The notes below the pieces were generated by a model, which worked only from the letters and a program-made list of their open reading frames with translations, searched no databases and had not been told where the DNA came from. The position numbers and the translations under genes are program-made. From Burkholderiales bacterium (GTDB lineage Bacteria; Patescibacteriota; Minisyncoccia; Phycocordibacterales; UBA9973): a stretch of 64,000 nucleotides of DNA. Of this stretch, positions 21,964-44,970 are shown piece after piece; position 1 is the first letter of the stretch, and each line of letters starts with the position of its first letter. The stretch spans positions 9,148 through 73,147 of the forward strand of contig JAMPXW010000003.1 in NCBI GenBank assembly GCA_023701005.1, in the 5' to 3' direction.

Positions 21964-22259
21964 TTATATTCAAAATATAACAAAAATTATTTGCATGATC
22001 AATAAACAAAATGATATAATGTTACACGTTACCAAGCTGATCTGCATACGCGTCAGCCCATGGTAGATAGGATGCGATTTGCTACCCTTTCTCCATTGGT
22101 CATATGACCTAATTTATTGGTCAATGAAAGGTGCCAAGCATTTGCTGGCATTTCCCGGTCGATCTATATAATAAGGGGAAACCAGATTGTGAGGTGCGTA
22201 TGAGCGCACTTTTTTGTTGCGTTAACAATTATTAGTAATAGTTAATTAACAAAATTATC

Positions 22260-23441: not shown

Positions 23442-23454
23442 AAAAAATATTTTT

Positions 23455-23488
23455 CAGCACCTAGATAAAATAGGTGCTGTTTTTTTTA
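23455..23488 (+). terminator. rho-independent terminator after 22260-23441
   Basis: cagcaccta-gataaaa-taggtgctg followed by T8. Confidence 0.65.
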
Positions 23489-23540
23489 AAAAAAACAAAG
23501 TATGAAAATCTTATAAAAAATGCTAAAATGAAAAGTATCT

Positions 23541-25853: not shown

Positions 25854-25856
25854 AAA

Positions 25857-27335
25857 ATGAAATTACAATTTACAAATTCAGACATAAAACAAAAAGTAGA
25901 TCGCATCATGTATGAGCTGTTTGCTGGTGGAGTAAACAACCCAATGACAGCCATCGAACAGATCAGCTATTTGATGTTTCTAAAATCCTTAACTGAATTT
26001 GATGAGCAACAAGAAAGAATTTCTAATCTATCTGGTAAAAAATACGAGAGTGTATTCAATGGAAAAATCAGCAAGTTCAGTTGGCGTGTAATTAGTCGAC
26101 TTTCTGGTGATGAGCTATATAACACACTAGCAGAAGTATTCGAACATTTACACGAACTTCCAAAACTTACAGCCACAGGAAAAACCCTATTCCGCCAAGC
26201 TCACTTAAAGATATACAATCGCCCTACCCTAAAATCAGTAGTGAGTATTATAGATGGAATGGACTACAACAATGCTGAAAAATACGACACAGATGTCAAA
26301 GGAGATATGTATGAATATCTCTTAAACAGAATAGCTGTGGCCGGTACAAACGGACAATTCAGGACTCCACGTCACATCATCAAGGCTATGGTTGAATTAA
26401 GTAAACCAAAACCATCAGATCTAATACTGGACCCGGCTTGTGGTACTGCTGGATTTTTGATTGAAGCATACAAACACATACTCAAAGAAAATACTTCAAA
26501 AGAAGAATTAGCTGAAGGAAATGAAAATGGTGACGAACTATCACCTGCACAACATGAATTCCTAAAAACAAAAGCTATCAATGGTTTTGACAACGATGCA
26601 GACATGATTAAAGTAGCGGTAATGAATTTATACCTTCATGATTTAGCTCAATCAAATGTAATAAACTTCGATCCACTAACTCTTCCAGAAGAAAAGAAAA
26701 AGAAATACGATTTGATACTCGCAAACCCTCCTTTCGCTGGTAATATAAACCCTGAAGCAATCCAAGAAGACATTGGATTAAGTACTACAAAAACAGAATT
26801 ACTATTCTTGAAATACATGTATGACCATCTAGCTGATGGTGGTAGATGCGCAGTGATTGTGCCTGAAGGAATCTTATTCGGGTCTACAGGCGCTCACAAA
26901 AAAATGCGTGAACTAATGATGGACACATGCAAAATAGATGCAGTAATCAGTCTTCCCTCTGGAGTATTCAAACCATATGCGGGAGTAAAAACTGCGATAA
27001 TCTTGTACACGAAAGGTGGTAAAACTGACAAGGTCTGGTTTTATGAAGTAGTTGGTGATGGATTTACTCTTGATGATAAAAGAAACCCAGACCCAAAGAA
27101 TGACAACCTAAAGGATTTATTCAAGGCTTTCGAAAAGAAAGAAGCTGGCCCGTATAGTTGGATAGTAAAAAGAGATGAAATAGTAGCTGAAGAATACAAC
27201 CTCACAGCATCACGATACAAACCTGCAAGCACTGAAGTCATAAACCACCGAGACCCTAAAGAGATCATTACAGAGGTAATGAAACTTGAAAAAGAAATAG
27301 TCGAGGGTCTTGAAAATCTAAAGAAAAAGATATGA
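25857..27335 (+). CDS. hsdM: Type I R-M N6-adenine DNA methyltransferase subunit
   Basis: HsdM N-domain, AdoMet motif DPACGTAGF, catalytic NPPF. Confidence 0.9.
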   Translation: MKLQFTNSDIKQKVDRIMYELFAGGVNNPMTAIEQISYLMFLKSLTEFDEQQERISNLSGKKYESVFNGKISKFSWRVISRLSGDELYNTLAEVFEHLHELPKLTATGKTLFRQAHLKIYNRPTLKSVVSIIDGMDYNNAEKYDTDVKGDMYEYLLNRIAVAGTNGQFRTPRHIIKAMVELSKPKPSDLILDPACGTAGFLIEAYKHILKENTSKEELAEGNENGDELSPAQHEFLKTKAINGFDNDADMIKVAVMNLYLHDLAQSNVINFDPLTLPEEKKKKYDLILANPPFAGNINPEAIQEDIGLSTTKTELLFLKYMYDHLADGGRCAVIVPEGILFGSTGAHKKMRELMMDTCKIDAVISLPSGVFKPYAGVKTAIILYTKGGKTDKVWFYEVVGDGFTLDDKRNPDPKNDNLKDLFKAFEKKEAGPYSWIVKRDEIVAEEYNLTASRYKPASTEVINHRDPKEIITEVMKLEKEIVEGLENLKKKI

Positions 27336-28423
27336 CATGGGAAACGATACAATTCGACAAAATAATTACTTCATATGGTGTTGGTAAAAATGGTCTATCT
27401 AAAAAAGATTGGAGTGAAGATGACAAATATCCAGTAATAGGACAAGGCGCTGATTTCATAGAAGGTTGGACAAACAGAGAAGATTTGGTAATTAATCCTG
27501 ATTCTGAGGGTTTAGTTATTTATGGTGGACACACACGAAGAGCAAAATATATAACTACACCTTTTGTGCCCGGTCCTAATGTGAAAATACTAAAAACACC
27601 TCCTGAGATAAAACCTAGATTTTTATTCTACTTTCTTAATTCTGCAGAAATACCAAATAAAGGGTATGCGGATCACTTTCCTCTTGTAAAAAGAATTAAA
27701 GTACCTATACCTTCCATAAAAGAGCAAGAAAGAATTGTAGCTCTTCTTGAGCAAGCTGAGGAATTAAAAAACAAAAGAGCTGAGGCAGATCAAAAAATGG
27801 AAGAACTAGTCCCTGCATTATTTAATGATATGTTCGGGAATTTGTCACAATGGCCAAAAATCAAACTCAGAGATATAGCAATTGTTAAAATAGGCCCCTT
27901 TGGGACACAATTACATAAACATGATTACATAGAAAATGGCACCCCCATTGTTAACCCTACTCATATAGTTGAAGGTAAAATAATTGTAAATCAATCATTT
28001 ACTATCAGTGAAGAAAAGACCAAAGAAATTAATCAGTATATTATGCATACCGGAGATATCGTGCTAGCAAGAAGGGGTGAAATGGGAAGATCTGCGATAG
28101 TCTCTGAAAAAGAAGATGGCTACTTGTGCGGTACAGGTAGTTTGTTTATAACTCCAACTAACCAAATTAATCCATATTTTCTAAACACAATTTTTTCTTC
28201 AATTCAAATGAAAAAAACATTAGAGGAAAATGCTCGTGGCGTGACAATGAAAAACTTAAATATCAATATCGTTGAAAATATATGTATTTCAAACCCACCC
28301 ATAGAATTACAAAACCAATACGAGAGAACTATTAAAGAACTTATGTTCTTAAAACATAAACAAGAAGAATCGGTCAATAAATTAAAAGAACTATTTACGG
28401 CTATTCTAACAAAAAGCATATGA
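27332..28423 (+). CDS. hsdS: Type I R-M specificity subunit (two target-recognition domains)
   Basis: two TRD halves separated by conserved coiled region (EQERIVALLEQAEELK); start overlaps hsdM stop (ATGA). Confidence 0.85.
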   Translation: MTWETIQFDKIITSYGVGKNGLSKKDWSEDDKYPVIGQGADFIEGWTNREDLVINPDSEGLVIYGGHTRRAKYITTPFVPGPNVKILKTPPEIKPRFLFYFLNSAEIPNKGYADHFPLVKRIKVPIPSIKEQERIVALLEQAEELKNKRAEADQKMEELVPALFNDMFGNLSQWPKIKLRDIAIVKIGPFGTQLHKHDYIENGTPIVNPTHIVEGKIIVNQSFTISEEKTKEINQYIMHTGDIVLARRGEMGRSAIVSEKEDGYLCGTGSLFITPTNQINPYFLNTIFSSIQMKKTLEENARGVTMKNLNINIVENICISNPPIELQNQYERTIKELMFLKHKQEESVNKLKELFTAILTKSI

Positions 28424-30102
28424 CAAGACAGAAACCTATAAAAGAAATAATGCCGTGGAGCAAAGATGAGCTAGAAAAACTATTACTCAAAGTAATAGAC
28501 CTTGGTGTAGAGACAGCTAAAATTGATTTCAAGCTCGAAATTGAAACAAACACTCCTGAGCAAAAATCAGAACTATTAAAAGATATTTGTGCAATTTCAA
28601 ATACTTATGACCTAAATTATGATGATTATGGTTTTCTTATATATGGAGTAAAATCAAAATCTATTATTGGTATCTCTACAACGGAAGAAAATACTGACAA
28701 TTTTCAAAATCACATAGAGCAATTACTCAAAAACAACATCACTCCTACTCCACAAATACAGATTGTTTCTTTTGAAACCGAAGACAATAAAAAATGGGGT
28801 GTAATTGTTATACCACCAGACAACAATAAACCTCACATGTTCTTTAAGGATTTCTCTTGTCCAACAAATCCAAGCAAAAACAGAAAAAAGGGCGAATGGT
28901 TTGTAAGACATGGTTCTACTACCGACCCTGCTTCAGCAGAAGATCTCTCAATCATTAACCAAAAACAAATTGAAATAACCTTAGAGCCACTAAAAGAGAG
29001 TATTAAGAATTTACAAGCTCGTGTTCTAAAAACTGAAGAGCAGTACAACAGCGCCCTATTTAAGCTAATAGAAACTGCACTAAAAAATACTACTCAAAAT
29101 AGAAATGCGCCTGAAGTAGAAAAAACTGAAATTGCATCTGATATTGAAGAAGTAGTTTCAGTTGATTTGGCAAGTCGATTCAAAAGTAAATTACTTACAC
29201 CTAAAGATAAGTTATCCGAAGAACTTATCTCGGAGGCAATTAAAATAAGAGAATACATAGATGGAGCAAATACAGGGCTAACTTGGATACCTCAATTAAA
29301 TAATTCGGAAGACAATAAAAAGATCGTAGAAAACTTAGAAGAAAAGATAAAACCATTTATTGATTCTGTGGCCATGATCGTATTAAAGGACGAAAAAAAT
29401 ATCTATAAAGAATCACTAATAAAAGCTATAAAAATTCTTTGCAAATCAATAGATGCCCCAAGTGGCACTCAGTATAATAGAATAGGACAAGGTATTAGAT
29501 ACTATCCATTATACCTACTCTTATATGTGATTTTTATTTGCGGGGTGGTTTCAAATAAAGGATCGTTACTAAAAGATATACTGAATCTTCAAATAAAACA
29601 TCCACGAACTAAAAATACCTCACCTATTACAGATGTTTATTTCTTCGCCTATGAAGGAAAAGCTTTAGTAAACGATGCTTATAAACAAAGGTGGTGTGAG
29701 CCAATTGCGCAAAGAATACGACAATTTATAAGTGACAATATCGGTGAACATATTACAGAAATGTCTGAGGCGGAGTATTTTTTCAAAGGAGAATTTGTTC
29801 TATCACTAAGTAATATCAATAAGGCGATGAGTGATGGCGAACAAGTAGAACACAGAATTCCACTAGGTGGACTTTATCTACATTTATATGAATGCAACGA
29901 ACCAATAACCGATTTAATAACAGAATTACCCGATTGGCTAGATAAATTATATGATCATCCACTAAACGAAATTCTAGACATGTTTGATAAAAATGCAACA
30001 AAAATGTCTGGCCAGGGTTGTTTTGCAACAGGTACTCATGGTCTTAAAACCAGAGAATTATATGACCTCGCGTTAAGCTCTAGAGCTAAAAAGACTCGAT
30101 AA
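28420..30102 (+). CDS. AlbA_2/Schlafen-like (COG2865-type N-domain) protein with coiled-coil middle and uncharacterised 230-aa C-terminal domain
   Basis: N-term ETAKIDFK...ICAISNTYD..GFLIYGV...WFVRHGSTTDPASAEDL matches AlbA_2 signature (E..LEFK / AlANt.GG / yvRvGsst..A..ee); ATGA overlap with hsdS stop. Confidence 0.6.
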   Translation: MTRQKPIKEIMPWSKDELEKLLLKVIDLGVETAKIDFKLEIETNTPEQKSELLKDICAISNTYDLNYDDYGFLIYGVKSKSIIGISTTEENTDNFQNHIEQLLKNNITPTPQIQIVSFETEDNKKWGVIVIPPDNNKPHMFFKDFSCPTNPSKNRKKGEWFVRHGSTTDPASAEDLSIINQKQIEITLEPLKESIKNLQARVLKTEEQYNSALFKLIETALKNTTQNRNAPEVEKTEIASDIEEVVSVDLASRFKSKLLTPKDKLSEELISEAIKIREYIDGANTGLTWIPQLNNSEDNKKIVENLEEKIKPFIDSVAMIVLKDEKNIYKESLIKAIKILCKSIDAPSGTQYNRIGQGIRYYPLYLLLYVIFICGVVSNKGSLLKDILNLQIKHPRTKNTSPITDVYFFAYEGKALVNDAYKQRWCEPIAQRIRQFISDNIGEHITEMSEAEYFFKGEFVLSLSNINKAMSDGEQVEHRIPLGGLYLHLYECNEPITDLITELPDWLDKLYDHPLNEILDMFDKNATKMSGQGCFATGTHGLKTRELYDLALSSRAKKTR

Positions 30103-30342
30103 AAACCAAGGAAAATGGTAAAATGAATTTACCATAATTTATGGTGACAAAACCTAAACCAGAGCAATCTGGCATGGTTCAAATATCCCACGCGAATAGA
30201 AACGGCCACATAAGCCGACATTCATTCGCGTGGGTCCACAATCGAAAGGTTGTGGGATAGTTCCGAAAGGAGCTGTCGTCGTGTCTTGTGTGGCCATTTG
30301 TGTTAAACAAGCCGACTATTATCAACTAAAACCCACGCGAAA
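30103..30342 (+). other. GC-rich highly structured leader/ncRNA candidate with mutually exclusive pairings
   Basis: cccacgcgaa at 30187 and again at 30329 just before the ATG, complementary ttcgcgtggg at ~30231; hairpins atggtaaa/tttaccat/atggt, ccaga-gcaa-tctgg, cccacaa-tcgaaagg-ttgtggg. Confidence 0.45.
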
Positions 30343-31212
30343 ATGAAAACTAAATATAACAAAGGATTTATTCCTATCATAGCGATAGTGATACTTGGAA
30401 TGCTTGTTGTCGCCGGAGGCACAACGGCTTTGATAAGTAGTAAAAAAGAAAATGTAAATAAAATTGCACCCGAAGATAAGAGTGTCCTAAAAAACGAAGA
30501 GGTGTCTTCAAACAAAAACACAGAAGTAAAGACAGAAAAAACGAATATCTCTGAGACAGAAAAACAAGTAAAAATTGAAACAAAAACTCCTCTGGTAGAT
30601 ACAGAAGAAAATGTAAAAACAAAACTAGTAGATACAACAAAAGAACAACCGGCAGAGATACCACAGGAAGTAAAAACTGGACATCTAGGAATAAAATTGA
30701 TCAATGAATTTTTACAAATTCCTACCTTAGACAACCTGAAAGCATTCTGTACTAAAGCAAAAAACGTAGATGGTATATCAGAAAAGAAAGTAATGAATCA
30801 GGACAAAACTGCATATGTGATACAAAAAAATTCTCTCTATGATGAAGTAAAAATATGCAAAACAGCTCTAAATGAATACCAAGGAAGCGAATGGTATAAA
30901 TGGACTTCTTATAAAGAAGATTACTTAATCAAACTAGTAGACCCTAGTGAACCAGACAGCATTAGATCTAAAAAATTGGATTACAACGAAAAGATGTTGT
31001 TAATGAAAGAATATAATTTATTTGCATATGATCCCTCTTCTGCAAGATTTGAAGATGTATCCAACTATTTGAAACCAAACGTGGTGATGGAAAAGATAAT
31101 AGAAATTGATCAAAGCAAAAGAAATAGTATAACATCGAGGATGTATCTAAATTCATTTTTAATACCCGAGAAAGAAATGGTCAAACTCAAAGAAAGACTA
31201 ATAAAACAATAG
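30343..31212 (+). CDS. hypothetical secreted/membrane-anchored protein (N-terminal TM, Lys/Glu-rich linker)
   Basis: signal-anchor FIPIIAIVILGMLVVAGG then low-complexity region. Confidence 0.5.
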   Translation: MKTKYNKGFIPIIAIVILGMLVVAGGTTALISSKKENVNKIAPEDKSVLKNEEVSSNKNTEVKTEKTNISETEKQVKIETKTPLVDTEENVKTKLVDTTKEQPAEIPQEVKTGHLGIKLINEFLQIPTLDNLKAFCTKAKNVDGISEKKVMNQDKTAYVIQKNSLYDEVKICKTALNEYQGSEWYKWTSYKEDYLIKLVDPSEPDSIRSKKLDYNEKMLLMKEYNLFAYDPSSARFEDVSNYLKPNVVMEKIIEIDQSKRNSITSRMYLNSFLIPEKEMVKLKERLIKQ

Positions 31213-31261
31213 ACGCAATTGAAAAAACAAAGAATTCAAAAAATGTCTCAAAATAAACCCT

Positions 31262-31801
31262 TTATAAATAAGGTTGCAAGTCTCTGCAATTTGACCTATC
31301 CAAAAGATTACTAGGGAGACGTGTAGTTATCCAATCAGAATTAGAAAGTAGTAATAACTTCCAAACCCAAGCAGATTCAAAAAACAATCTGGTCCTATCC
31401 TTCCAAGATAATTCAGGGTTAGCATAACAACTAAAACCATCTTCATTTATAAATAAAGTATTATAGGAAGTTATAGCTTTGTATGCTTCTTCCATAAAAC
31501 AAGAAGACAACTTAATCCCTCCACGCTTCTCTAAATCCTTAGCTAAAGCTTCTAAAACAGCATTCAATCGTCCATCCTGTATCCATCTTTTATACCTTCT
31601 ATGACATGTTTGAAAAGACGGAAAACCCTCGCCTTTAGGTAAGCGCCTCCAAGAACCACCTAGCTGAATCACATACAAAATACTATTAAGCACATCTCTA
31701 TCAGAAGTTCTTTTTCTTCCTCTGGTTTCCAAAGAATTACGCTTAATAAGCGGTTCTACTAAAGCCCATTGTTTATCTGTTAACTTAAATGGCAAGATCA
31801 T
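31262..31801 (-). mobile_element. IS5-family (IS427/ISL2 group) transposase remnant, N-terminal DUF4096-type domain only
   Basis: LTDKQWALVEPLI..RGRKRTSDRDVLNSILYVIQLGGSWRRLP...YKRWIQDGRLN matches IS5-family N-terminus; DDE region degenerate/absent, 179 aa. Confidence 0.65.
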
Positions 31802-31838
31802 ATATTAATTATAAAATAAATTGATATAATTAAAATGT

Positions 31839-32525
31839 ATGGAAACTAAAGGCGATAAAAATGTGCTAGCGCACATAGCTGATGTGATATTAAAATCGAA
31901 AGTAAAAGACAATAATCAATACTCTGGAATCAAGTATGAGTCTCTTCCGTTTGCAAAAGAAGAAGCTAGAGAAGGACTCAAGGAATTAGCAAGAAACAAG
32001 TACATAGAAATAGAAAAAGATTATGATACATACTTACACGAAGAACCAATACACGACCCATTCCCTATAAATAACCACCCCTCAAAAACAATCTATACAA
32101 TACCGGCCGGAGCATTAGTAAAAATAAAGAATGAAAAAGAACTAAAAAAACTAGCTTCGACTAAATCATTTATAAATCCAAATATCAAAGATTTGAAAAA
32201 AGATGAGAGTACTGGAGATTTTTATTTGAAAGAAGATAAGTTAGAAATGGGACACGAAACCACACATTACACTCTCTTAGAGTTATTCTACGAAAAAGCT
32301 ACTGATGGAGTTATCACACAAGACTCCGCTCTAGAATTTTTTAATGAAAGAAAAATCAAAGTCGGTGGCAAAAAGATAACAAAAGAAAATATAAATAAAA
32401 CAATAAATAACTATACCGCTTCTCTACTAAGATTCGCAAAAATTAAAGGAAAAAGATTCACAAGCTCACCAATAAAAAAAGTGAAAAAAGGCAAATATGT
32501 AATCGGCTGGAAATTCTCTAAATAA
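31839..32525 (+). CDS. hypothetical protein, 228 aa
   Basis: ORF only. Confidence 0.45.
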   Translation: METKGDKNVLAHIADVILKSKVKDNNQYSGIKYESLPFAKEEAREGLKELARNKYIEIEKDYDTYLHEEPIHDPFPINNHPSKTIYTIPAGALVKIKNEKELKKLASTKSFINPNIKDLKKDESTGDFYLKEDKLEMGHETTHYTLLELFYEKATDGVITQDSALEFFNERKIKVGGKKITKENINKTINNYTASLLRFAKIKGKRFTSSPIKKVKKGKYVIGWKFSK

Positions 32526-32664
32526 TATAATACTTACATTTTACTTATGGATAACCTCAATTGAGGTTATTTTTACATTGCAAACAAAGACTATTTTCTA
32601 AATATAAGTAAAACTAATCAATTCTAAGCTAAAAAAGAAATTCATAGAATAAATATACACAACG

Positions 32665-32727
32665 CCAAGGCGATCAAAGTAGTTGTGTAAGTCCATCCCT
32701 TGATCCAATCGCCTTGGTCAAGGGATG
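32665..32727 (+). promoter_or_regulatory. leader with two mutually exclusive hairpins (attenuator-like)
   Basis: stem A ccaaggcgat/atcgccttgg; stem B catcccttgatc/ggtcaagggatg whose loop contains the 3' arm of A; B abuts start codon region of 32725-32949. Confidence 0.35.
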
Positions 32728-32949
32728 TATTTATTTATGAAGTTCAGCACAGAACAATTAAACAGACTAAGAACAATCATGGAAAAAGATTATGGGGTTC
32801 TTATGAATGACTCTCAGTTAGAAAAATTCGCATCATCTATAGTACGTTTAGCAAATGTATCTCTAAAAGCTTTGACTGAAGAGAACGACACAGAGTCGCT
32901 CCCTTCAGTGAGGGCTAATGTGTCCTCAATAGCAAATACCAGCACTTAA
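32725..32949 (+). CDS. hypothetical small protein (74 aa; alternative start 32737)
   Basis: ORF only. Confidence 0.35.
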   Translation: MYLFMKFSTEQLNRLRTIMEKDYGVLMNDSQLEKFASSIVRLANVSLKALTEENDTESLPSVRANVSSIANTST

Positions 32950-33326
32950 GTGCCTTTTCAAGCCCTGGGCGCACCTATGTGGGGCTTGTAAAAATAAAAT
33001 AGACATAGGATTGGTTTCGTGATCCCGCGATTAAGGGATGAGGGGTGTCACAAGGAAACCAAACCACTGATTGCGGTGTAGCTTAAAAGACCCTAACGCA
33101 ATCAAGTTCACCACCAGTACATTATTATGAGCTGTGTTGGATAGATGGGTCCAAGTAACCTCCGAGATAAAACGGAAAAAGGTACGGCGACCCCCTAAGG
33201 TTCTAAAACCGTGGGGGTTTGGGGGCTATTGGATTCGGGAAAGGTGTCTTTACTAGACTTCTTGAGAAAAATCCAATACCCTTGTGTTTGCATAAATTAT
33301 TAGAAATTAATAACAAAAAAAATAAA
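32950..33326 (+). other. GC-rich structured non-coding region upstream of serine recombinase (ncRNA or recombination-site candidate)
   Basis: hairpins caagccc...gggcttg, tggtttc...gaaacca, gattgcg...cgcaatc, attggatt...aatccaat; competing ccccc/ggggg segments; markedly GC-richer than genome. Confidence 0.4.
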
Positions 33327-35036
33327 ATGGAAAAAGAACAACAAAAATTAAACAAATACTTTATTTATTGCAGAAAGTCTACAGACAGCGAAGATAGACA
33401 AATACAATCATTATCAGATCAAATTAGGATATTACAAGAAATGGCAGAAAAGAAAGGTTTAATGATAGTAGAAACCTTACAAGAAGCTAAATCTGCTAAA
33501 GCACCCGGTAGGCCAGTATTCACGAAAATGATTGAGAGAATTAGTAAAGGTGAAGCCAATGGAATAATCACATGGAAATTAAATCGATTAGCGCGTAATC
33601 CTATAGATGGTGGAACTATCAGCTGGCTACTCCAACAAGGAGTGATTAAAGAAATCCTCACCCCGGAAAAAAGCCACTATCCAAATGATAATGCATTAAT
33701 CATGTCAGTAGAATTAGGTATCGCAAATCAATTCATTAGAGACTTAAGTAGTGATGCTAAGCGTGGTATAAAAACAAGAGCAACACAAAAAGGTTACCCA
33801 AATGGAGTTGCTCCTATAGGATACTTAAATGATCTTGTGAAAGCCAAAGGAGATCGTGGCTGGAAAGTAGACGAAGAAAGATTTCCAATAATAAAACAAA
33901 TACTAAAAATGTTTGCCACGGGTAAATACTCAGTGAGACAAATGACTAGTATTGCTAACGAAGAAATGGGATTGAGAACCTTTATAAGGAAAAAACAAGG
34001 TGGAAAGAAAATCGTTGTATCTTACATGGATGTGATATTAAAAAATCCAGTATATGCCGGCTTCTTCTTTCTCAATACAGATAATAGTAGGCATGAAGTA
34101 AACAAAGAAATTCCAAGAATGATCTCTGAAGAAACATATTGGAAAATACAAAAAATTCTTGGAAACAGAGGACGCCCTAGGCCTCACAAAAATATAAAAG
34201 CTTTCGCTTATACAGGTCTCACCAAATGCGGTGGCTGTGGTGGCTCTGTGACGGCTGAAGAAAAATACCAATTAATATGTTCCAGTTGTAAGCATAAATT
34301 CGCCTATGCAAGTAAAAACGAATGCCCCAAATGCAAAACAAAGATAAAAGACATGGAAGATCCTACTTACTTACACTATACCTACTATCACTGCACAAAA
34401 AAGAAAAGAGAACTAAAATGCAAAGAAAGATCAGTGGTGGATACAAAAATCGATGAGACGCTGGCAGACTACTATAAAAAAAACTTAAAAATATCAGCCG
34501 ACTTGTCTAAGTGGTGCATAGAAAATCTACGAGTAATTGAGAAAGAAGAAAAGCAAAATGATTACGAGATAAAAGCGTCTTTACAGAAAACCCTGACATC
34601 AAAAGAAAAAGAGCTTTCAGAACTAGCACTGATGCGCGCCAGAGGGCTTTTGGACGATGAAAGCTTCATTACAGCACAAAATACAATAAAGGAAGATATT
34701 AGCGCCCTTAAGCGAAAATTGAGCGAATTTGAGCATCTTGATCCAGAAAAAGCAGAAAGGATTTACCAAGCATTCGACCTATCGCAAGGCATAGACGAAA
34801 TTATCAGAAATGGCACGCCTGAAGAGAAAAAATCAGTATTATTGGAAATTGGTTCGAACCTAACTCTAAAAGACAAAACAATCAATGTTTATAACAGCGA
34901 ATTGTATTCTGCAATAATAAATGGACTACATTTAGCAAAGTCTGAAATTGAGTGGTTCGAACCTGAAAATTATCAAGCAGAACAAGAACAAAACGCCTCT
35001 TTCGAGGCGCTTCGTTCAACCATGCTCCGGGGGTAG
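33327..35036 (+). CDS. large serine recombinase (integrase type: resolvase catalytic domain + recombinase domain + zinc ribbon + coiled coil)
   Basis: YCRKSTDSEDRQ..SLSDQ catalytic Ser region, LNRLAR, CGGCGGS...CSSCKH...CPKCKT zinc ribbon; start set at MEKEQQ (ORF track start 33219 overlaps a conserved hairpin); stop overlaps tRNA-Asn 3' end. Confidence 0.8.
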   Translation: MEKEQQKLNKYFIYCRKSTDSEDRQIQSLSDQIRILQEMAEKKGLMIVETLQEAKSAKAPGRPVFTKMIERISKGEANGIITWKLNRLARNPIDGGTISWLLQQGVIKEILTPEKSHYPNDNALIMSVELGIANQFIRDLSSDAKRGIKTRATQKGYPNGVAPIGYLNDLVKAKGDRGWKVDEERFPIIKQILKMFATGKYSVRQMTSIANEEMGLRTFIRKKQGGKKIVVSYMDVILKNPVYAGFFFLNTDNSRHEVNKEIPRMISEETYWKIQKILGNRGRPRPHKNIKAFAYTGLTKCGGCGGSVTAEEKYQLICSSCKHKFAYASKNECPKCKTKIKDMEDPTYLHYTYYHCTKKKRELKCKERSVVDTKIDETLADYYKKNLKISADLSKWCIENLRVIEKEEKQNDYEIKASLQKTLTSKEKELSELALMRARGLLDDESFITAQNTIKEDISALKRKLSEFEHLDPEKAERIYQAFDLSQGIDEIIRNGTPEEKKSVLLEIGSNLTLKDKTINVYNSELYSAIINGLHLAKSEIEWFEPENYQAEQEQNASFEALRSTMLRG

Positions 35037-35062
35037 GGATCGAACCTACGACCAATCGCTTA

Positions 35063-35631
35063 CACTTTATCTCCTATTACTAGAAGTGTGGACTATATCA
35101 TCTCCATGTTCATAAAATTTATGAATTTAGAAGCAAGGCGCTTCGCGCTCTAACATAAATTAGAGAGCTACTCCATAAATGGATAGTCTCTACACCTTCC
35201 TCAATTTAAAATTGAGGCTTGGCTCGGGATTACCCCATAAGGGCTTCCCCGAATTCACCTTGTTTTTCAACCTAAGTTTTCTTAGGAAGCTGCGTAATAC
35301 CGTCATGTATTTCCATATGACAATTTGCACACAAGAGAACACATTTATCAATTTCTTTTTTGATACGTTCCCATGACCTAGTTAACCCCCTAGAAGAAAG
35401 ATCAAAATCTTTTTCTTTTGGATTTAAGTGATGAAAACTTAATGATCTCTGGCATTTATTATAGCCACACACAATACACTTACCGCCTTTATAGTCTCTA
35501 GCCATTTCACGAAGCTTTTTTCTTCTTCTTGTAACAGCCATTACCATATATTCTCTACGGTCGGCATATGTTCGTTTTTCTACTCGTTTCTTTTTGGTAT
35601 ACACAAGTAGATTATACCACAAACATCCGAC
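35063..35631 (-). mobile_element. group I intron within tRNA anticodon loop
   Basis: 5' exon ends in U, intron ends in G; P7 pairing agacta...tagtc and P8-like hairpin tccatttatgga downstream of ORF. Confidence 0.65.
35272..35622 (-). CDS. HNH homing endonuclease encoded in the tRNA intron
   Basis: CIVCGYNKCQRSLSFHHLNPKEKD...LLCANCHMEIH HNH motif; non-ATG (TTG) start in track. Confidence 0.7.
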   Translation of the reverse strand: MWYNLLVYTKKKRVEKRTYADRREYMVMAVTRRRKKLREMARDYKGGKCIVCGYNKCQRSLSFHHLNPKEKDFDLSSRGLTRSWERIKKEIDKCVLLCANCHMEIHDGITQLPKKT

Positions 35632-35832
35632 ACAGGCGACCGCTCTACCGCTGAGCTACCCCGGAATATTTTATTTTCAATTCTTCTTTTAAATACCATA
35701 ATTTCCACCAAACTATCTACCTATAAGTAGATAAGCCCCGGAATATTATTCAATTAAAAGAACTTTTTATATCTTAACAGAAAATAACTAAAAAACAAGA
35801 TGGCTTTTCGTTTTAGTGTATAATTAAATACA

Positions 35833-36537
35833 ATGGATTATCAATATTTTTATATAGTTTGGACTTTAATATTTTTCGCCATTTGGATGGCTCTTTTTTT
35901 ATATCGCAAAGATTTAAGACATGAAATATCAGTCATAAGTTTTGGTTCTGGGTTCGGAGGGATATTCAGTCAGGCTACTCACATAGAAGACTGGTGGAAT
36001 CCTTTAAGACTAACTCAAACACCCATAGGAATTGAAGATTTTTTAATAGGATTTTCTATTGGAGGAATATGTTCTGTTGTATATGCAATATTGTTTAACC
36101 TAAAAGTCGAACCAAATAATTTTTATTTTACAAAAAATGGTAAAAACGATCGCTTGCTAGGTAATATTTTTTTACTTTCTTTTATTCTCTTATTCTTTTG
36201 GATGTTTTATATACTCAATATTAGTTCATCATATTCTGTATTGATATCATATTTGCTAGGAATATCTGTAATGCTTTTCTTCCGCAGGGATTTAATACAA
36301 AATTCTTTAATAAGTGGACTCATCACTCTCATGTTAGGGTCTCTCATTTATTACTTCCTAATGCTCTTATTCCCAGGATTCATAAATAAATTCTGGTATC
36401 TACCTCAAGTTTGGTATTCTAAAACATTTTTTGATATACCATTAGGAGAATATATCTGGTATTTTCTGACTGGAGCATTCATAGGTCCATTGTATAAATT
36501 TGTCAGAAATAAAAAGACAGTAAGAATAACACCTTAA
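35833..36537 (+). CDS. integral membrane protein (possible lycopene-cyclase-domain family)
   Basis: 7 predicted TM; PIGIEDFLIGF and IPLGEYIWYF resemble the hPhEE motif of lycopene cyclase domains; weak. Confidence 0.35.
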   Translation: MDYQYFYIVWTLIFFAIWMALFLYRKDLRHEISVISFGSGFGGIFSQATHIEDWWNPLRLTQTPIGIEDFLIGFSIGGICSVVYAILFNLKVEPNNFYFTKNGKNDRLLGNIFLLSFILLFFWMFYILNISSSYSVLISYLLGISVMLFFRRDLIQNSLISGLITLMLGSLIYYFLMLLFPGFINKFWYLPQVWYSKTFFDIPLGEYIWYFLTGAFIGPLYKFVRNKKTVRITP

Positions 36538-37172
36538 TCACGAGTGGGTGGTCTAAAGAATATATTTTCTAACATTCCTTGACTATTTCCTTTCAAAACC
36601 CTAATAGCGTATTTTTTACCTTTCTTAAAACATTTATCTAAAATCTTTTTGTTTTCAAAAGTTCTTATATCTCCACTATAAAAAGCCCCCATGACTTTAG
36701 CTCCAAAATAAAGAAAAAGTGCCCTCAACCAAAAAGCAGGAAAAGCAAAAAACAAAATATGCTCAGCCCAGTTTGGGGTGCCTCCAGAGACTAAAAAATA
36801 AGTTTTTAAATTGTGAAGCTTACCTACGGGCTGACCAAATTTATTTCTTTGTGTTAAATCAAGGGCAATAAACCTAATCCTGTCTATAAAATTCTTCAAA
36901 TGTGCAGGCACAGAAAAATTATAAGTGGGTGTGGCTATGACTAAACCTGAGATGTCATTTGCTATCTTGCTAACCAATTTTTTGAAATCTTTCTCCCCTT
37001 CTTCTGGGTCTTTACTATTTTCAAAACGATAACTATTTATATGAACATCTTCGAGATAAATCTTTTCTACTTCGATACCAGAAACTTCTCTCATTCCCAA
37101 AATAAAAGAATCCAACATAGTGTCAGAATTCCTTCCACGAGATGGCGAACAAGAAATAGCAAGTATTTTCAT
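36534..37172 (-). CDS. NAD(P)H-dependent FMN reductase / flavodoxin-like fold protein
   Basis: MKILAISCSPSRGRNS...ATPTYNFSVPAHLKNFIDR; ORF extends to 37190 with alternative start. Confidence 0.7.
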   Translation of the reverse strand: MKILAISCSPSRGRNSDTMLDSFILGMREVSGIEVEKIYLEDVHINSYRFENSKDPEEGEKDFKKLVSKIANDISGLVIATPTYNFSVPAHLKNFIDRIRFIALDLTQRNKFGQPVGKLHNLKTYFLVSGGTPNWAEHILFFAFPAFWLRALFLYFGAKVMGAFYSGDIRTFENKKILDKCFKKGKKYAIRVLKGNSQGMLENIFFRPPTRD

Positions 37173-37211
37173 ATCTTTATAATACAACAAATAGATTAAT
37201 TTTTCCTATAT

Positions 37212-37745
37212 TTAAGATTCTTTTTCTTCTTTGAGTTCTAGATTGATATCAAATTTTATTTCTTCTGATACAACAACTCCCCCTTTTTCAAGAGAAGCAT
37301 TCCAATTAAGACCAAAATCTTTGCGATTCAAAGAACCATTTATTTCAAAAGCCATCACATTGCCGCCATACATATCTACCATCTTCCCGTTGAACACAGC
37401 CTCAAAAATAACTTCCTTCGTCACTCCACGCATAGTCAAATCTCCAACAACTACATAATTATTATCATTTTTATTTTTTACACTTTTAGATTTGAAAGAT
37501 ATTAAGGGAAACGAAGAAGCATCAAAAAAATCAGCAGATTTCAAATGTTCATCCCTCATTTGATTGTTAGTATTTACAGTGGCCGCTTCTGCTGAAAAAG
37601 AAATCTCTGCTTTTTCAAAATTATCTTCTGGTAATACAACACTTCCTTCAAAATTACTAAAATTACCTTTTACTGTTGAGATCATCAGATGTTTGACCTT
37701 GAATCCAACTTCAGAATGCATTTTATCTATAGTCCATTTACTCAT
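37212..37745 (-). CDS. YceI-like polyisoprenoid-binding protein
   Basis: WTIDKMHSEVGFKVKHLMISTVKGNF YceI family N-terminus; ORF track start at 37760. Confidence 0.7.
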   Translation of the reverse strand: MSKWTIDKMHSEVGFKVKHLMISTVKGNFSNFEGSVVLPEDNFEKAEISFSAEAATVNTNNQMRDEHLKSADFFDASSFPLISFKSKSVKNKNDNNYVVVGDLTMRGVTKEVIFEAVFNGKMVDMYGGNVMAFEINGSLNRKDFGLNWNASLEKGGVVVSEEIKFDINLELKEEKES

Positions 37746-37840
37746 ATATTTTTTATTCATATTAATTATAATAAACTCATCTTAGACTATCTACTTTACT
37801 TTGTAAAGGACTTTACAAGTTAAAGCACAAATGCTACACT

Positions 37841-38146
37841 TTGTCCATGAAAAACAAACTTCATAATAATTGCCCTGTAGGAAGGGTCGCTTCTCTTCTC
37901 TCTGATACTTGGACCATGCTCATCATTCGAGATCTATTAAAAAAAGAGATGCGCTTTTCTGATTTAGAAAGATCTTTAGAAGGCATCAGCACTCGCACTC
38001 TAATAAAAAAAATAAAATGCCTAGAAAGTGAAGGCATCGTAGAAAAAGAAGACATGCATTATGTCATAACAAAAAGAGGAAAGAAATTAAAGAAAATAAT
38101 AGATGCTATGTCGGAATACGGCAAGACTTTACCTGCTTTAAAATAA
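37841..38146 (+). CDS. HxlR-family winged-helix transcriptional regulator
   Basis: CPVGRVASLLSDTWTMLIIRDL...RFSDLERSLEGISTRTLIKKIKCLESEGIV; divergent from yceI/FMN reductase pair. Confidence 0.8.
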   Translation: MSMKNKLHNNCPVGRVASLLSDTWTMLIIRDLLKKEMRFSDLERSLEGISTRTLIKKIKCLESEGIVEKEDMHYVITKRGKKLKKIIDAMSEYGKTLPALK

Positions 38147-38194
38147 TTTTCTAATAAATGCTAAAAACCTTCTTTTTTGATAGAATAAATAAAT

Positions 38195-38779
38195 ATGAAA
38201 AAACATCTAGAAAAATTTGTATTATTCTTACATAAGAAATATAAGATAACTCCAGACATATTAACCTACATAAGAATATTTTCTGCACCGTGGATTGCTC
38301 TACTCATTTCAAAAGTTCTTTCTGGTAAAAGTCTAAGTCTGTCTATAATCACAATAGTTATTTATATTCTTGTAGTATCTACCGACTTATTGGATGGCAT
38401 ACTAGCTCGCGCCATATCAAAAACAAATGAGCATGATCATGCTCATGGAGGAATGCTCGATAGAATAGCAGACAAAATACTCATCATCACCTTACTCATT
38501 CCTTTTGGTTTAAATCTTTTTACTTTTCTAATCATCTTGGCTGAATCGATACTTCTCTTCCATGTCTTATTTGCTCCAAGTGAAGAAAAACAAGCACACA
38601 AAGCTGGCAAAATAAAAATGATTCTTCAAACTATACTCATACCAATATTAATATTGAATACAACCATTAACATAGCTCCAGAAATGTTGGTCTATATTTA
38701 TATCATAATCACGATCATCGCTTCTTTTGTATCAGTATATTCACACTACTCACATTACTTTTATATAAAAAATGACTAA
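38195..38779 (+). CDS. pgsA: CDP-alcohol phosphatidyltransferase (PgsA-like)
   Basis: DLLDGILARAISK...HGGMLDRIADK = D(x)2DG(x)2AR...G(x)3D(x)3D motif. Confidence 0.75.
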   Translation: MKKHLEKFVLFLHKKYKITPDILTYIRIFSAPWIALLISKVLSGKSLSLSIITIVIYILVVSTDLLDGILARAISKTNEHDHAHGGMLDRIADKILIITLLIPFGLNLFTFLIILAESILLFHVLFAPSEEKQAHKAGKIKMILQTILIPILILNTTINIAPEMLVYIYIIITIIASFVSVYSHYSHYFYIKND

Positions 38780-39749
38780 CTCTATAGCTTTCAATATTTG
38801 TAGCTTATTTAGAATATGCAAAAAAACTAAAATGCCTGGCACAATAGCAAGCTTTGTAGCTTTAATATTTTCTTTTCTCTCTTATTACTTTTTCAACAAA
38901 ACAATATATATCGTTTTGTTCTTCTTTATTTTATTCTTAAGCTTTTGGGCAATAAAAAAAGTACAAGAAAAAAATGGTGTATCAGACCATCAATGGATAG
39001 GAATAGATGAATGGATAGGAATGTGGATTGCAAATATGTTTTTATTTGAATTCACTTTCAATCTTACCCAAGCAATTATTTTTTCTATAGTCGCTTTCAT
39101 TATTTTTAGAATAATAGATATCTTTAAATTTATCCCTCCCCTCCAAACAATAAATAATGAAAAAAATCAGAATGCTTTCAATGTTATCTTCGATGACTTT
39201 ATCGGAGGAATATATACATACTTTTTTATGCTATTAATTTTAGGTATTTATGATCTAAATTATCTTTATGCTTCATTCATATTGCTTTTACCAGCAATGA
39301 TAGCAAATATGACACCGGTATTATTGAAAATAAACTTTTTGAATAAATCAATAAATGAAGAAGTTTTTGGTAAAAATAAGACTTGGCGTGGATTCATAGG
39401 AGCTATAATCGTCGGAACATTTTCTTACTTTTTATTAGTTAAATATAATTTAATAGAATCCGTAGATAACCTGACTTTCATACTTTTAATCGGATTTTTA
39501 TTTAGTTTTGGAGCTATTGGTGGAGATTTAATAAAATCATATTTCAAAAGAAAAATCGGTATAAAAGCAGGAGAAAGTTTTACCCCATGGGACCAAATCG
39601 ATTATGTTTTAGGTATCATATTACTAACTTATTTCATTTACCAATATTCATTCAGCCAAATAATCTTCTTACTCATATTGGGCGGAAGTATAAGTGCATT
39701 AACTCATAGGTTGGGGTTTTTAATTAAAATGACTAAAAATAAACAATAG
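38772..39749 (+). CDS. fusion protein: phosphatidylglycerophosphatase A (PgpA) domain + CarS/DUF46-like CDP-alcohol synthase membrane domain
   Basis: N-half MPGTIASFVALIF...WIGIDEWIGMWIA (PgpA PGT and DE motifs); C-half KTWRGFIGAIIVG...GGDLIKSYFKRKIGIKAGESF resembles CarS/CdsA-type cytidylyltransferase C-terminus. Confidence 0.5.
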   Translation: MTNSIAFNICSLFRICKKTKMPGTIASFVALIFSFLSYYFFNKTIYIVLFFFILFLSFWAIKKVQEKNGVSDHQWIGIDEWIGMWIANMFLFEFTFNLTQAIIFSIVAFIIFRIIDIFKFIPPLQTINNEKNQNAFNVIFDDFIGGIYTYFFMLLILGIYDLNYLYASFILLLPAMIANMTPVLLKINFLNKSINEEVFGKNKTWRGFIGAIIVGTFSYFLLVKYNLIESVDNLTFILLIGFLFSFGAIGGDLIKSYFKRKIGIKAGESFTPWDQIDYVLGIILLTYFIYQYSFSQIIFLLILGGSISALTHRLGFLIKMTKNKQ

Positions 39750-39754
39750 CTCGT

Positions 39755-40828
39755 TTATTTCGTAATCATATCTGTAAATTTATTGAATACTTTTATAGCA
39801 TTCTCAAAAGTGTTAAAACAAAAATCATAAAATAAATCTAGCAAATGAGTATTTCTCATCTTTGGAGAATATGTGACTGAATCTTTCTTCCAATTGTCTG
39901 CAACTAAGGAAAGTTCTTTAATCAATTCTTCATCTGTAAAAAATATTCCTGATTCAATATTCAAATCAAAAGAAATAATATCAATATTTTGTGAACCCAA
40001 TATTCCCTCTTCATCATCCACCAACATCATCTTGCTGTGTATCATCTCTTTAGTTAAGAAAAATTTGATATCATGCTTATAAAGCTTCTGCATATAGAAA
40101 TAATTTGGTACATTTGCTATCTTGGGATGATCAGCCATCTCCGGCATTATTATTTCTACATTCACTCCTCTTTTGGCTGCTTTCTTCAAAGATTTTATAA
40201 GCCATCGGTTTGGCATAAAATAAGGAGTGACAATCAAAATCTTATTTTTCGCCATATCTATTTTGTCGCGATAATATTTACTAAGTCTAAAAGAATTCCT
40301 CAAAGGAGAATGTTCGAAAAACCAAACCTTCCCTTTTGATGTGCGAAATTCCTTTTCATATTTTAAAACTAAGTGATCTTTACCTCCACAATATTTATAA
40401 AGTTTAGCAAAAGATTTGATAACATATTTAACAACTTTCCCTTCTATTCTTATCTGAAGATCATCCCATTTTTTATAAAATTTAGTTATATTTATTCCAC
40501 CTACATAAGCAATCTTTTCATCTATCACAAGAATCTTTCTATGTGTGTGGCGAAATAAAGTTTTAAAAAATAAAATCTCTACACCTGCATCTCTCAACTT
40601 TTTAATAGAATTTTCAGTAAATTCTGCACTTCCAAAAGAATCCATAACTAATTTGATAGATACTCCAGATAATGCCTTCTTTTGCAAAATTTCGATGAAA
40701 TCATGACTTTCTTCTGTATTATCAACAAAAGTATACATTTCAAAGAAAATAGAGCTCTTGGCCCTATTTATAGCTTGCAACATAGCGTCCCAAGCCTTTT
40801 CTGTCTTTGTATATATCTTGTAACGCAT
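39755..40828 (-). CDS. cls: phospholipase D-family cardiolipin synthase-like protein
   Basis: two HKD motifs: HRKILVIDEKIAYVGGINI and HSKMMLVDDEEGILGSQNID. Confidence 0.8.
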   Translation of the reverse strand: MRYKIYTKTEKAWDAMLQAINRAKSSIFFEMYTFVDNTEESHDFIEILQKKALSGVSIKLVMDSFGSAEFTENSIKKLRDAGVEILFFKTLFRHTHRKILVIDEKIAYVGGINITKFYKKWDDLQIRIEGKVVKYVIKSFAKLYKYCGGKDHLVLKYEKEFRTSKGKVWFFEHSPLRNSFRLSKYYRDKIDMAKNKILIVTPYFMPNRWLIKSLKKAAKRGVNVEIIMPEMADHPKIANVPNYFYMQKLYKHDIKFFLTKEMIHSKMMLVDDEEGILGSQNIDIISFDLNIESGIFFTDEELIKELSLVADNWKKDSVTYSPKMRNTHLLDLFYDFCFNTFENAIKVFNKFTDMITK

Positions 40829-40918
40829 ATAGATCTATATTATACCTTTTACTAGATTTTGTTCAAAACAGCAAATTTGCATTTTAAAAAAAATAATATA
40901 GAATATTCTATATTGGTT

Positions 40919-40992
40919 GGGCCCTTAGCTCATCTGGCTAGAGCGCCTCATTTGCAATGAGGAGGTGGCAGGTTCGAGTCCTGTAGGGTCCA
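40919..40992 (+). tRNA. tRNA-Ala(UGC)
   Basis: cloverleaf: GGGCCCT acceptor (G3:U70), D-arm GCTC/GAGC, anticodon stem CCTCA/TGAGG loop TTTGCAA, T-loop TTCGAGT, discriminator A; no encoded CCA. Confidence 0.85.
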
Positions 40993-41003
40993 CGCGTAAA
41001 AAA

Positions 41004-41030
41004 AGAGTTCCACAAAGTGGGACTCTTTTT
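41004..41030 (+). terminator. terminator after tRNA-Ala
   Basis: agagttccac-aaa-gtgggactct + T5. Confidence 0.65.
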
Positions 41031-41151
41031 GCGTGAACCCTAAGTAAGCAAACTGCTTTGCTTACGTCAGGACGAGAAAAGCTTTTTGTTATAAATTGGG
41101 ATTTAATAATCCTAATTTATCTAAAAGGTATACTGGTCATGTAATGACCGA

Positions 41152-41169
41152 GATTCCTGTAGGGTCCAC
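41152..41169 (+). repeat. direct repeat of tRNA-Ala 3' end (gattcctgtagggtccac vs gagtcctgtagggtccac at 40976-40993)
   Basis: 17/18 identity, 160 nt downstream of the tRNA. Confidence 0.55.
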
Positions 41170-41179
41170 AAAAAGAAAA

Positions 41180-41211
41180 AGCGTGAATAATTTTATTTTC
41201 ACGCTTTTTTA
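41180..41211. terminator. bidirectional terminator agcgtgaa/ttcacgct
   Basis: 8-bp stem with A/T runs on both sides; downstream of minus-strand sigma factor gene. Confidence 0.55.
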
Positions 41212-41258
41212 TTTTAATAAAAATGCAAATTTAAAGAGGCAGTTTTCTGCCTCTTTTC

Positions 41259-41900
41259 TTAATTATAACTAGACAACTTTAACTTTAATTTATTAAGAAT
41301 ACGCGAATGAAGTTGGGAAACCCTAGAGATTGTTATACTCAGAACTTGAGCAATATCTTTGTAGTTCAGACATTCATAATAATACAAAGAAAGTACTGTT
41401 CTTTCTCTTTCGTCCAATTCTTTAATTAACTCCAGCATTCTCTTTTTTAACTCTTTTTTCTCTAAAATTAAATCTGGTTTTAAAGAAGAAAAATCCTCTA
41501 AAACTTGATAGAGTTGCAAACCATCAGGATCACCAACCTCAACTGAATGGTTAAGAGAAAAATTAGATGTTGGAAATATTGTCGTTGCATATACATCAAA
41601 TTCTTCTTGCTTAGGAAAATATTTACGAATATTATCAAGTATTTCACCTCTAATTCTTTGAATGGCATAAGTTTCAAACTTTGTGCCATGGTCTGGGTCA
41701 AATCTATCAACCGCTTCACTTAAACCCTCAATTCCAAACTGAAAATAATCTTGTCTTTCTAATAAAACAGTAGGAATCAAATTTGCTTTATTAATTATAT
41801 AATGGACCAAATTCTGATACCGCAAAATTATTTCCTTTTTTAATTTAGGGGTTGGATTCTTTTTATAAGAAGCCCAAAGCTCTTGATTAATGGTGTCCAT
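41259..41900 (-). CDS. RNA polymerase sigma factor, sigma-70 family (group 3, FliA/SigD-like)
   Basis: region 2 FETYAIQRIRGEI, region 4 ERERTVLSLYYYECLNYKDIAQVLSITISRVSQLHSRILNKLK; start set at MDTINQ (ORF track extends to 42029). Confidence 0.75.
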   Translation of the reverse strand: MDTINQELWASYKKNPTPKLKKEIILRYQNLVHYIINKANLIPTVLLERQDYFQFGIEGLSEAVDRFDPDHGTKFETYAIQRIRGEILDNIRKYFPKQEEFDVYATTIFPTSNFSLNHSVEVGDPDGLQLYQVLEDFSSLKPDLILEKKELKKRMLELIKELDERERTVLSLYYYECLNYKDIAQVLSITISRVSQLHSRILNKLKLKLSSYN

Positions 41901-42104
41901 TTTAATACTCCTTTTGGCTGGTTTTTGTATTTTTTTTATAAATTTACTAAATATATCTGATATAAATATAACATACAAAAGCTGTTTAGTCAAAACAAAA
42001 GCCCACCTTGCGGTGGGCTTTTGCGGCACTTATGTTGTTTACGATAAATGTAAGTTTTACCTCACACTCACAAAAAGAGTATAGCATACTTGAAATAAAA
42101 AAGC

Positions 42105-42435
42105 AAGTCTGGTAAGATAATACCGGTCCTGTATTGAATAGTTGCGCTCCGGCCTCGGCTGGAGTGAGGAAAGTCCGAACACATAGTCTCGGCTTAGGCC
42201 TTAGACAAGCGTAGTGGGTAACGCCCATCGGGAGCAATCCCAGAGTTGAGAACAGTGACGAACCGATTTAGTTCGGGTGAAACGGCAAAATACTTACGTG
42301 TGTGCAAGATCGTGTTCTGCGAAGCTTCATGCGAAGCAGAAAGAATCGCTTGAGCCCGAGCGTAAGCGAGGGCCTAGACAAATAACTATTGCCTTTATTG
42401 GTACAGAATTCGGCTTATAGATACAAGGCTCACAT
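42105..42435 (+). ncRNA. rnpB: RNase P RNA, bacterial type A
   Basis: GAGGAAAGUCCGAAC (P4 5' strand), GGGUAACGCC, GGGUGAAACGG, GCUUGAGCC, ACAGAAUUCGGCUUA (P4 3' strand) in canonical order; ends approximate (+/-20 nt). Confidence 0.85.
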
Positions 42436-42438
42436 ATG

Positions 42439-42470
42439 AAAAATCCTCTCGCAAGAGAGGATTTTTCTAT
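42439..42470. terminator. bidirectional terminator after rnpB / nrdJ
   Basis: aaaaatcctctc-gcaa-gagaggattttt. Confidence 0.7.
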
Positions 42471-42483
42471 TTTAAATTAACAT

Positions 42484-44850: not shown

Positions 44851-44970
44851 AGCATGATTATACACAACTTCTGATAGATAAAACTAGTGGAAAACAGACA
44901 AAAATCTCACAAAAAAACAGTTAAAAATAACTGTAAATAGCATTCCTCTTAGAGGCTGAAATGGCAAGCT

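Follow-up and report, generated by a model that had tools for sequence, protein, structure and literature searches.

A defense island at a tRNA-Asn 3' end and the tRNA-associated large serine recombinase that probably inserted it

The window analyzed here is a 64,000-nucleotide stretch of contig JAMPXW010000003.1 (assembly GCA_023701005.1). It contains a 13,091-bp defense island, neither conjugative nor phage-like, that was very probably inserted by its own large serine recombinase (LSR) at the very 3' terminus of a tRNA-Asn(GUU) gene. The original prediction, made from the sequence alone, took the overlap between the end of the LSR open reading frame (ORF) and the tRNA 3' end as an integration site, and this interpretation is supported by the comparisons below, above all with L140, a related locus in which the site is empty. 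The features concerned are listed with the evidence for each in parentheses.

21868-21936, minus strand: host 3' trailer of the tRNA-Asn gene, which the insertion has moved 13 kb away (79% identity to the L140 trailer)
21932-21936, no strand assigned: attL core TGCTC (three-way alignment of attL, attB from L140, and attR)
21937-35027, plus strand: integrated island of 13,091 bp, counting one copy of the core (absent from collinear L140; composition; strand)
33327-35036, plus strand: LSR (integrase), 569 aa (ORF, Pfam, homolog alignment, predicted model, Foldseek)
34955-34964, plus strand: GTTCGAACCT, the "FEP" codons, kept at the DNA level across the LSR family (codon use)
34986-35017, minus strand: terminator-like hairpin for the tRNA, from the element, inside the LSR coding region (14-bp stem followed by a T-run)
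35023-35027, no strand assigned: attR core TGCTC, antisense of tRNA G71-A72-G73 plus two trailer nucleotides (same alignment; GCTCC in the locus pairs L148/L093 and L135/L103)
35025-35062, minus strand: 3' exon of tRNA-Asn(GUU) (exon joining, L140; exact 38-mer in at least 120 metagenome stretches)
35063-35631, minus strand: group I intron of 569 nt, inserted at tRNA position 35/36 (RF00028; boundaries from L140)
35272-35622, minus strand: putative HNH-type homing endonuclease ORF within the intron, with an uncertain start placed at 35541 in a public gene call (Pfam, gene call in L091)
35632-35665, minus strand: 5' exon of tRNA-Asn(GUU) (exon joining, L140 comparison)

Empty site, junctions, and the interrupted tRNA gene

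Comparison of synteny with relatives, a check put forward with the original prediction, was carried out and identified the empty site in L140, which is collinear with the window and lacks the 13.1-kb block. By blastn, L140 834-3044 corresponds to window 13437-21939 and L140 3029-8565 to window 35015-46828. L140 lacks window 21940-35015 and the intron, contains tRNA-Asn, and has no LSR. An island of about 13 to 15 kb starting near 21.8 kb had been foreseen; the island is real, and its left edge and size are corrected to 21937 and 13,091 bp.

The occupied site reads GATTT-TGCTC-GGGATGCTGAAC at attL and AACCA-TGCTC-CGGGGGTAGGG at attR, the empty site reads AACAT-TGCTC-CGGGGGTAGGG at attB, and all three have only TGCTC in common. 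Two more occupied/empty pairs, L148/L093 and L135/L103, were found by searching empty-site trailers against occupied loci; in each of them the core is GCTCC and falls at the same place in the tRNA. The shared core is 4 to 5 bp in the three att triplets, a length compatible with short att sites and a 2-bp crossover, and the three cores overlap in GCTC. This GCTC, antisense to tRNA nucleotides G71-A72-G73 and the first base of the trailer, is where the junctions place strand exchange, and the exact crossover dinucleotide would fall there as well. The reconstructed attP is …CGTTCAACCATGCTC|GGGATGCTGAACAATG… and attB is …TTTTGCTCCGGGGGTAGGGATCG…, with predicted junction k-mers of …GGCTTAGATTTTGCTCCGGGGGTAGGGATCG… for attB and …CGTTCAACCATGCTCGGGATGCTGAACAATG… for attP. 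Apart from TGCTC, the window contains no long direct repeat of the 3' part of the tRNA, nor does it contain a partial tRNA copy. Such a repeat is a signature of tyrosine integrases; with a serine integrase, none would be expected, as had been anticipated. A search of 80 related loci for long repeats gave significant results only in L014 and L040.

Within the element, the LSR gene lies at the end nearest the tRNA, and its ORF crosses the attachment site. The last three codons and stop of the integrated LSR (L-R-G-stop) are read from host tRNA DNA, and the 12-nt overlap arises because the ORF continues past attR into that DNA. At most three bases of the tRNA come from the element, identical to those replaced, and the tRNA stays intact. 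The earlier view that the element rebuilds the tRNA end therefore holds for the place of integration but not for the extent, because no more than 3 nt (G71-A72-G73) is supplied and the overlap is mostly host DNA. The terminator-like hairpin provided by the element starts 8 nt after the tRNA 3' end, antisense within the LSR tail. In an excised circle, the LSR ORF would continue into the other end of the element, …STMLGMLNNVRTFLYSKYNKNYLHDQ*, to give a predicted protein of 589 aa. The corresponding tails of L148 and L135 show no relationship to the STMLGMLNNVRTFLYSKYNKNYLHDQ tail; therefore, the swapped C-terminal tail probably has no specific role.

The tRNA-Asn gene is on the minus strand with its 3' end at 35025, and it overlaps the LSR by 12 nt (35025-35036). 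All of these coordinates had been given correctly, and the gene is confirmed, but the group I intron that interrupts it had gone unmentioned. Default ARAGORN makes no tRNA call at this place because the intron and its HNH-like ORF split the gene. When the exons were joined (35665..35632 and 35062..35025, minus strand), ARAGORN returned a canonical tRNA-Asn(GTT). The intronless L140 gene joins window position 35062 directly to 35632 and reads CUGUUAA; therefore, the tRNA is Asn(GUU) and the intron lies at 35/36. Relative to the L140 gene, the 3' exon is identical and the 5' exon is ∼96% identical. A tRNA-Thr(UGU), proposed by ARAGORN in intron mode with a register two bases off, was ruled out by the CUGUUAA of L140 and by the published Asn 35/36 class.

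Rfam family RF00028 matches 35070-35359 (minus strand) with 65.5 bits (gathering score, 50). The intron ORF matches Pfam PF01844 with 19.4 bits, below the cutoff of 21.4, and a CxxC…HH…CxxCH pattern is visible. Subgroup IA introns at position 35/36 are known from tRNA-Asn(GUU) genes of Patescibacteria, where those longer than 500 nt contain HNH genes (PMC13011429), and the intron type is thus already published and not new. A 12-nt direct repeat, AATATTCCGGGG, occurs on the minus strand at 35659-35670, where it comprises 5 nt upstream of the tRNA and its first 7 nt, and again at 35736-35747. The second copy lies 77 nt upstream of the tRNA start and is followed by the palindrome TATCTACTTATAGGTAGATA.

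The recombinase and its relatives

The LSR ORF extends from 33219 or 33327 to 35036 on the plus strand, with a TAG stop at 35034-35036. The form starting at the ATG at 33327 has 569 aa and is identical to an NCBI-deposited "recombinase family protein." Pfam detects Resolvase (PF00239, 66.4 bits) and Recombinase (PF07508, 25.6 bits versus a cutoff of 21.1), and sequence matches in the PDB are 3g13 and 3bvp, the latter the TP901-1 catalytic domain. These results agree with the original prediction of a large serine recombinase that ends at 35036 and has resolvase and recombinase domains. R16, S18, and eight cysteines are invariant in an alignment of 24 homologs with 41 to 60% identity; the cysteines form CxxC pairs at 301/304, 318/321, and 333/336, plus C356 and C365. 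The Cys4 zinc ribbon that had been described is thus right in that cysteines of zinc-binding type are present, but the set is not a simple Cys4, and the eight invariant cysteines suggest an extra zinc motif. Pfam records the zinc-ribbon domain PF13408 on LSR homologs, and it is not reported for the window LSR itself.

The AlphaFold model of the LSR (pLDDT of 81) has a catalytic domain, a long alpha-E helix (residues 123 to 155) followed by a helical domain, a beta-rich zinc region (299 to 356), and a helical hairpin at 391 to 466 made of helices 391 to 438 and 444 to 466, in line with the coiled coil named earlier. Foldseek matched the full-length model to LSR-att complexes 9y66 and 9dxd, Bxb1 (9iu2), PhiC31 (9tep), and A118 (4kis) with E values of 1e−20 to 1e−11 and alignments spanning 560 to 575 columns. 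On this structural comparison, the protein groups with large serine integrases and is an LSR of the integrase type, not a small resolvase or invertase.

The protein bears a C-terminal extension of ∼100 aa that contains the FEP…TLLRG tail. Across LSR homologs, the tail "…FEP…(about 14 aa)…RPTLLRG*" is kept to the final residue, and longer homologs run on as "R(D/E)Q(D/G)SNL," which is the translated antisense of the tRNA T-arm. The FEP codons are conserved beyond their amino acids (TTC in 23 of 25 genes, GAA in 25 of 25, and CCT in 23 of 25; P values of 1e−4 to 6e−11 for the motif versus the remainder of the genes). The corresponding DNA, GTTCGAACCT, lies beyond the extent of a normal attP, at 61 to 70 bp from the crossover.

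Relatives of the LSR with 34 to 58% identity were collected from 80 genome loci, of which 70 could be evaluated. The LSR stop lies inside a convergent tRNA gene in 45 of the 70; in seven more, the ORF reads through a convergent tRNA (four loci) or abuts an intron-split tRNA (three loci), so that ∼52 of 70 (∼74%) end at or in a convergent tRNA. The overlap is not due to chance, because 45 of 70 relatives stop inside such a gene and seven more read through or abut one. At least 10 target isotypes are represented, namely, Asn (23 loci), His, Trp, Asp, Gln, Ser, Gly, Tyr, Glu, and Ile. Terminator-like hairpins comparable to that of the window were seen in several of the related loci (e.g., L004, L072, and L131).

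A metagenome scan with the exact 38-nt antisense 3' exon returned at least 80 loci. Among the matches listed, an LSR recognized by a family hidden Markov model abuts the tRNA-Asn allele at its 3' end in 27 of 69 evaluable copies and is missing from the other 42, and about 30 of 78 copies carry the intron, irrespective of occupancy. L148 (∼3440-5416) and L135 (∼5754-7861) hold minimal elements of ∼2.0 to 2.1 kb at the same tRNA-Asn site that comprise hardly more than a broken LSR gene, which shows decay in place.

A further element, P0004 (L081 to L090, ∼11690-11890), encodes a close LSR relative ending in "…TLLPN*" and occurs with identical cargo in 24 contigs. Its stop coincides with no tRNA, and no tRNA-Asn lies within 10 kb; its DNA follows the family pattern to GCTCC and then diverges, and right-hand contexts vary from ∼190 nt downstream. 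A scan of viral contigs found a single distant relative, which has no callable tRNA and so gives no attP evidence. The identical deposited LSR is labeled as belonging to a "Burkholderiales bacterium" metagenome-assembled genome. The low G+C content (∼32%), the 35/36 tRNA-Asn intron, and nearest relatives in Paceibacterota/Minisyncoccia point to Patescibacteria, and the bin label is probably wrong.

Cargo and surroundings of the island

The island holds the following further features, together with several unknown genes.

22028-22218, plus strand: non-coding stretch at the left end of the island, closing in a terminator-like hairpin at 22191-22212 (folding, terminator-like site)
22260-23441, plus strand: AIPR (abortive-infection-type) protein (Pfam PF10592, 105.8 bits; no PADLOC match)
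23541-28423, plus strand: type I restriction-modification operon with hsdR (23541-25853), hsdM (25857-27335), and hsdS (27332-28423) (Pfam, PADLOC)
28420-30102, plus strand: Schlafen/AlbA_2-domain protein (Pfam PF04326, 56.4 bits; weak PADLOC match, PDC-S65)
30151-30277, plus strand: LOOT RNA motif (Rfam RF03000, 71.3 bits versus a gathering score of 46.4)
31262-31801, minus strand: IS4/IS5-family transposase remnant, DUF4096 only (Pfam PF13340, 79 bits)

PADLOC scores for the restriction-modification operon were 226 (REase_I), 493 (MTase_I), and 166 bits (Specificity_I). Annotation with Pfam and PADLOC recognized no phage or conjugation genes in the island. All island genes are on the plus strand, except the insertion sequence (IS) remnant. 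The G+C content is 0.32 to 0.405 with positive AT skew in the island and 0.27 to 0.31 with negative skew in the flanks. The stretch at 22028-22218 (∼190 nt, upstream of the AIPR gene) has a minimum free energy of −59 kcal/mol (z = −2.46 versus shuffled sequences) and no Rfam match. The LOOT RNA lies between the Schlafen-domain gene and an unknown ORF, and its presence as cargo of a mobile island may be a clue to LOOT function.

Just outside the left edge, 21561-21768 (plus strand) is a short ORF with a weak NYN-domain match (69 aa in the public gene call) that looks like a gene fragment. On the other side, L140 also lacks ∼35800-40870, a second indel beside tRNA genes (5 kb, from tRNA-Asn to tRNA-Ala) that has no recombinase and encodes a lycopene-cyclase-domain protein, an FMN reductase, YceI, and lipid-synthesis genes.

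Alternative histories and comparison with known systems

Sequence comparison points to this LSR as the enzyme that catalyzed the insertion, and the island may be mobile at present. Several observations weigh against that account. For the reconstructed attP and attB, an ungapped test of dyad symmetry gave no more than expected by chance (P = 0.20 and 0.38, respectively), and the empty site comes from a related organism rather than the same one, with a trailer that is 79% identical. When the exact flanking host proteins were looked up for island-free strains, they were found only on the same contig and in the same sample; the element and its flanking proteins turned up only on contigs from one sample. 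No recombination directionality factor was recognized with Pfam or PADLOC. The IS5-family remnant among the cargo and the broken LSR ORFs of the ∼2-kb relatives at the same site indicate frequent decay in place. The last three of these points, namely, restriction to one sample, no recognized directionality factor, and decay, all speak for a fossil island, in which the LSR integrated here, excision has since been lost, and the LSR ORF persists without function or for another reason. Such a history is a real possibility, although not the one we favor: the full-length LSR ORF retains every family-invariant residue and has a confident predicted fold, and both att junctions are intact.

Another reading puts the crossover at the TTCGAACC "FEP" site or farther inside the tRNA, in the T-loop or anticodon arm, so that the element would contain a sizeable copy of the tRNA 3' part. 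The significant distal repeat of L014, which begins exactly at TTCGAACCT, the conservation of the FEP motif at the DNA level, and the T-arm-like sequence that follows the "LLG" tail in the viral-contig relative could be read in this way. However, the three attL/attB/attR triplets switch partner in GCTC(C) and attL has no tRNA sequence beyond it, the window has no partial tRNA copy, and the left copy in L014 ends in GCTCC and then diverges, which fits the relic tail of an earlier element. Such geometry is already contradicted for this LSR subfamily and is extremely improbable; a crossover at the TTCGAACC site, a candidate prompted by L014, was itself ruled out by the three att triplets. Hardly more credible is that the block is ancestral and was lost from L140 by deletion, or that the LSR was domesticated beside tRNA genes and the 13-kb block accrued otherwise. 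Only one empty-site relative represents the host lineage, and L140 also lacks other stretches of the window, e.g., 35.8 to 40.9 kb. Yet a deletion would have had to end exactly at the last tRNA bases and restore a trailer homologous to 21868-21936, the breakpoint is identical in unrelated contigs, occupancy is polymorphic (the 27 of 69 copies above), and the cargo varies between relatives. Insertion by the island's own LSR therefore remains our preferred reading.

Transfer RNA genes are textbook targets of tyrosine integrases, and the description of asn tRNAs as classic island targets is true for those enzymes but not for serine integrases. Like P4-like elements and the enterobacterial asn-tRNA islands, the window island uses a tRNA-Asn 3' end, has a tRNA-proximal integrase, keeps the tRNA, and carries accessory and defense cargo. 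It differs in enzyme family and mechanism and in leaving 5 shared bp, with at most 3 tRNA bases from the element, rather than tRNA 3' repeats of 15 to 50 bp. SCCmec, which inserts into the protein-coding gene rlmH (orfX) and has ccr genes that are internal to the element and often paired, is likewise a cargo island that an LSR drives, lacks phage and conjugation genes, and leaves intact the conserved housekeeping gene whose extreme 3' end it occupies; in the window, the target is a tRNA gene and the LSR is at the edge. SSV1-type archaeal integrases are tyrosine recombinases, and integration splits their int gene into two large parts. They share attP inside the int ORF and a tRNA gene target, whereas here only the last three codons are exchanged and the enzyme belongs to the serine family.

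Among LSRs themselves, the window protein resembles the integrases of phages and integrative and conjugative elements (A118/LI Int, Bxb1, PhiC31, TP901-1, and TnpX) in its catalytic, alpha-E, recombinase, and zinc-ribbon regions with an embedded coiled coil, in its full-length structural matches, and in a minimal junction core without long direct repeats. The known targets of those enzymes are protein coding or intergenic, whereas attB here is the last 3 to 4 nt of a tRNA gene. An ORF that spans attP, the eight invariant cysteines, and the C-terminal extension of ∼100 aa also set it apart. The largest mapping study called serine integrases "not known for targeting tRNA genes" (PMC7192596). That work, by Mageeney et al. 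(2020) with TIGER, predicted serine integrases in t(m)RNA genes in 14 of 297 cases, which had not been reported previously and for which experimental proof was needed (PMC7192596). The present case is likewise a computational prediction of t(m)RNA gene use by a serine integrase; unlike those elements, it concerns a coherent clade with the association in ∼74% of its members, and three mapped att triplets. In tycheposons, LSRs occur in only 27 of 937 elements and are not specifically tRNA linked. A full-text literature search combining Patescibacteria, serine recombinase, and tRNA found nothing relevant.

The island is ordinary in its LSR mechanism and unusual for serine integrases in its target class. 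Use of tRNA genes is systematic in the LSR clade, and three independent cases map the crossover to the last bases of the tRNA. Neither this target class nor the overlap of ORF, att site, and terminator was found described in the literature compared. More tentatively, and with considerable doubt, these LSRs may form a deep and widespread clade, centered on Patescibacteria and present in other phyla, that is specialized on the last 3 to 4 tRNA nucleotides and has switched among at least 10 isotypes, whose ORF always spans attP so that integration rewrites the C terminus, and in which GTTCGAACCT serves as an accessory recombination or regulatory site. If this is true, the picture of serine integrases as enzymes that avoid tRNA genes would be overturned, and integrases with near-universal tRNA ends as natural landing pads would become available. 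Apart from that broader reading, the findings point to a pool of serine integrases whose natural attB sites are highly conserved and that are candidate genome-engineering tools. The design, of which the window island is an ordinary example, is compact, with overlapping integrase ORF, att site, and replacement tRNA terminator, and systematic use of tRNA genes by the clade accounts for a substantial share of the variable, defense-rich DNA beside tRNA genes in the small genomes of Patescibacteria.
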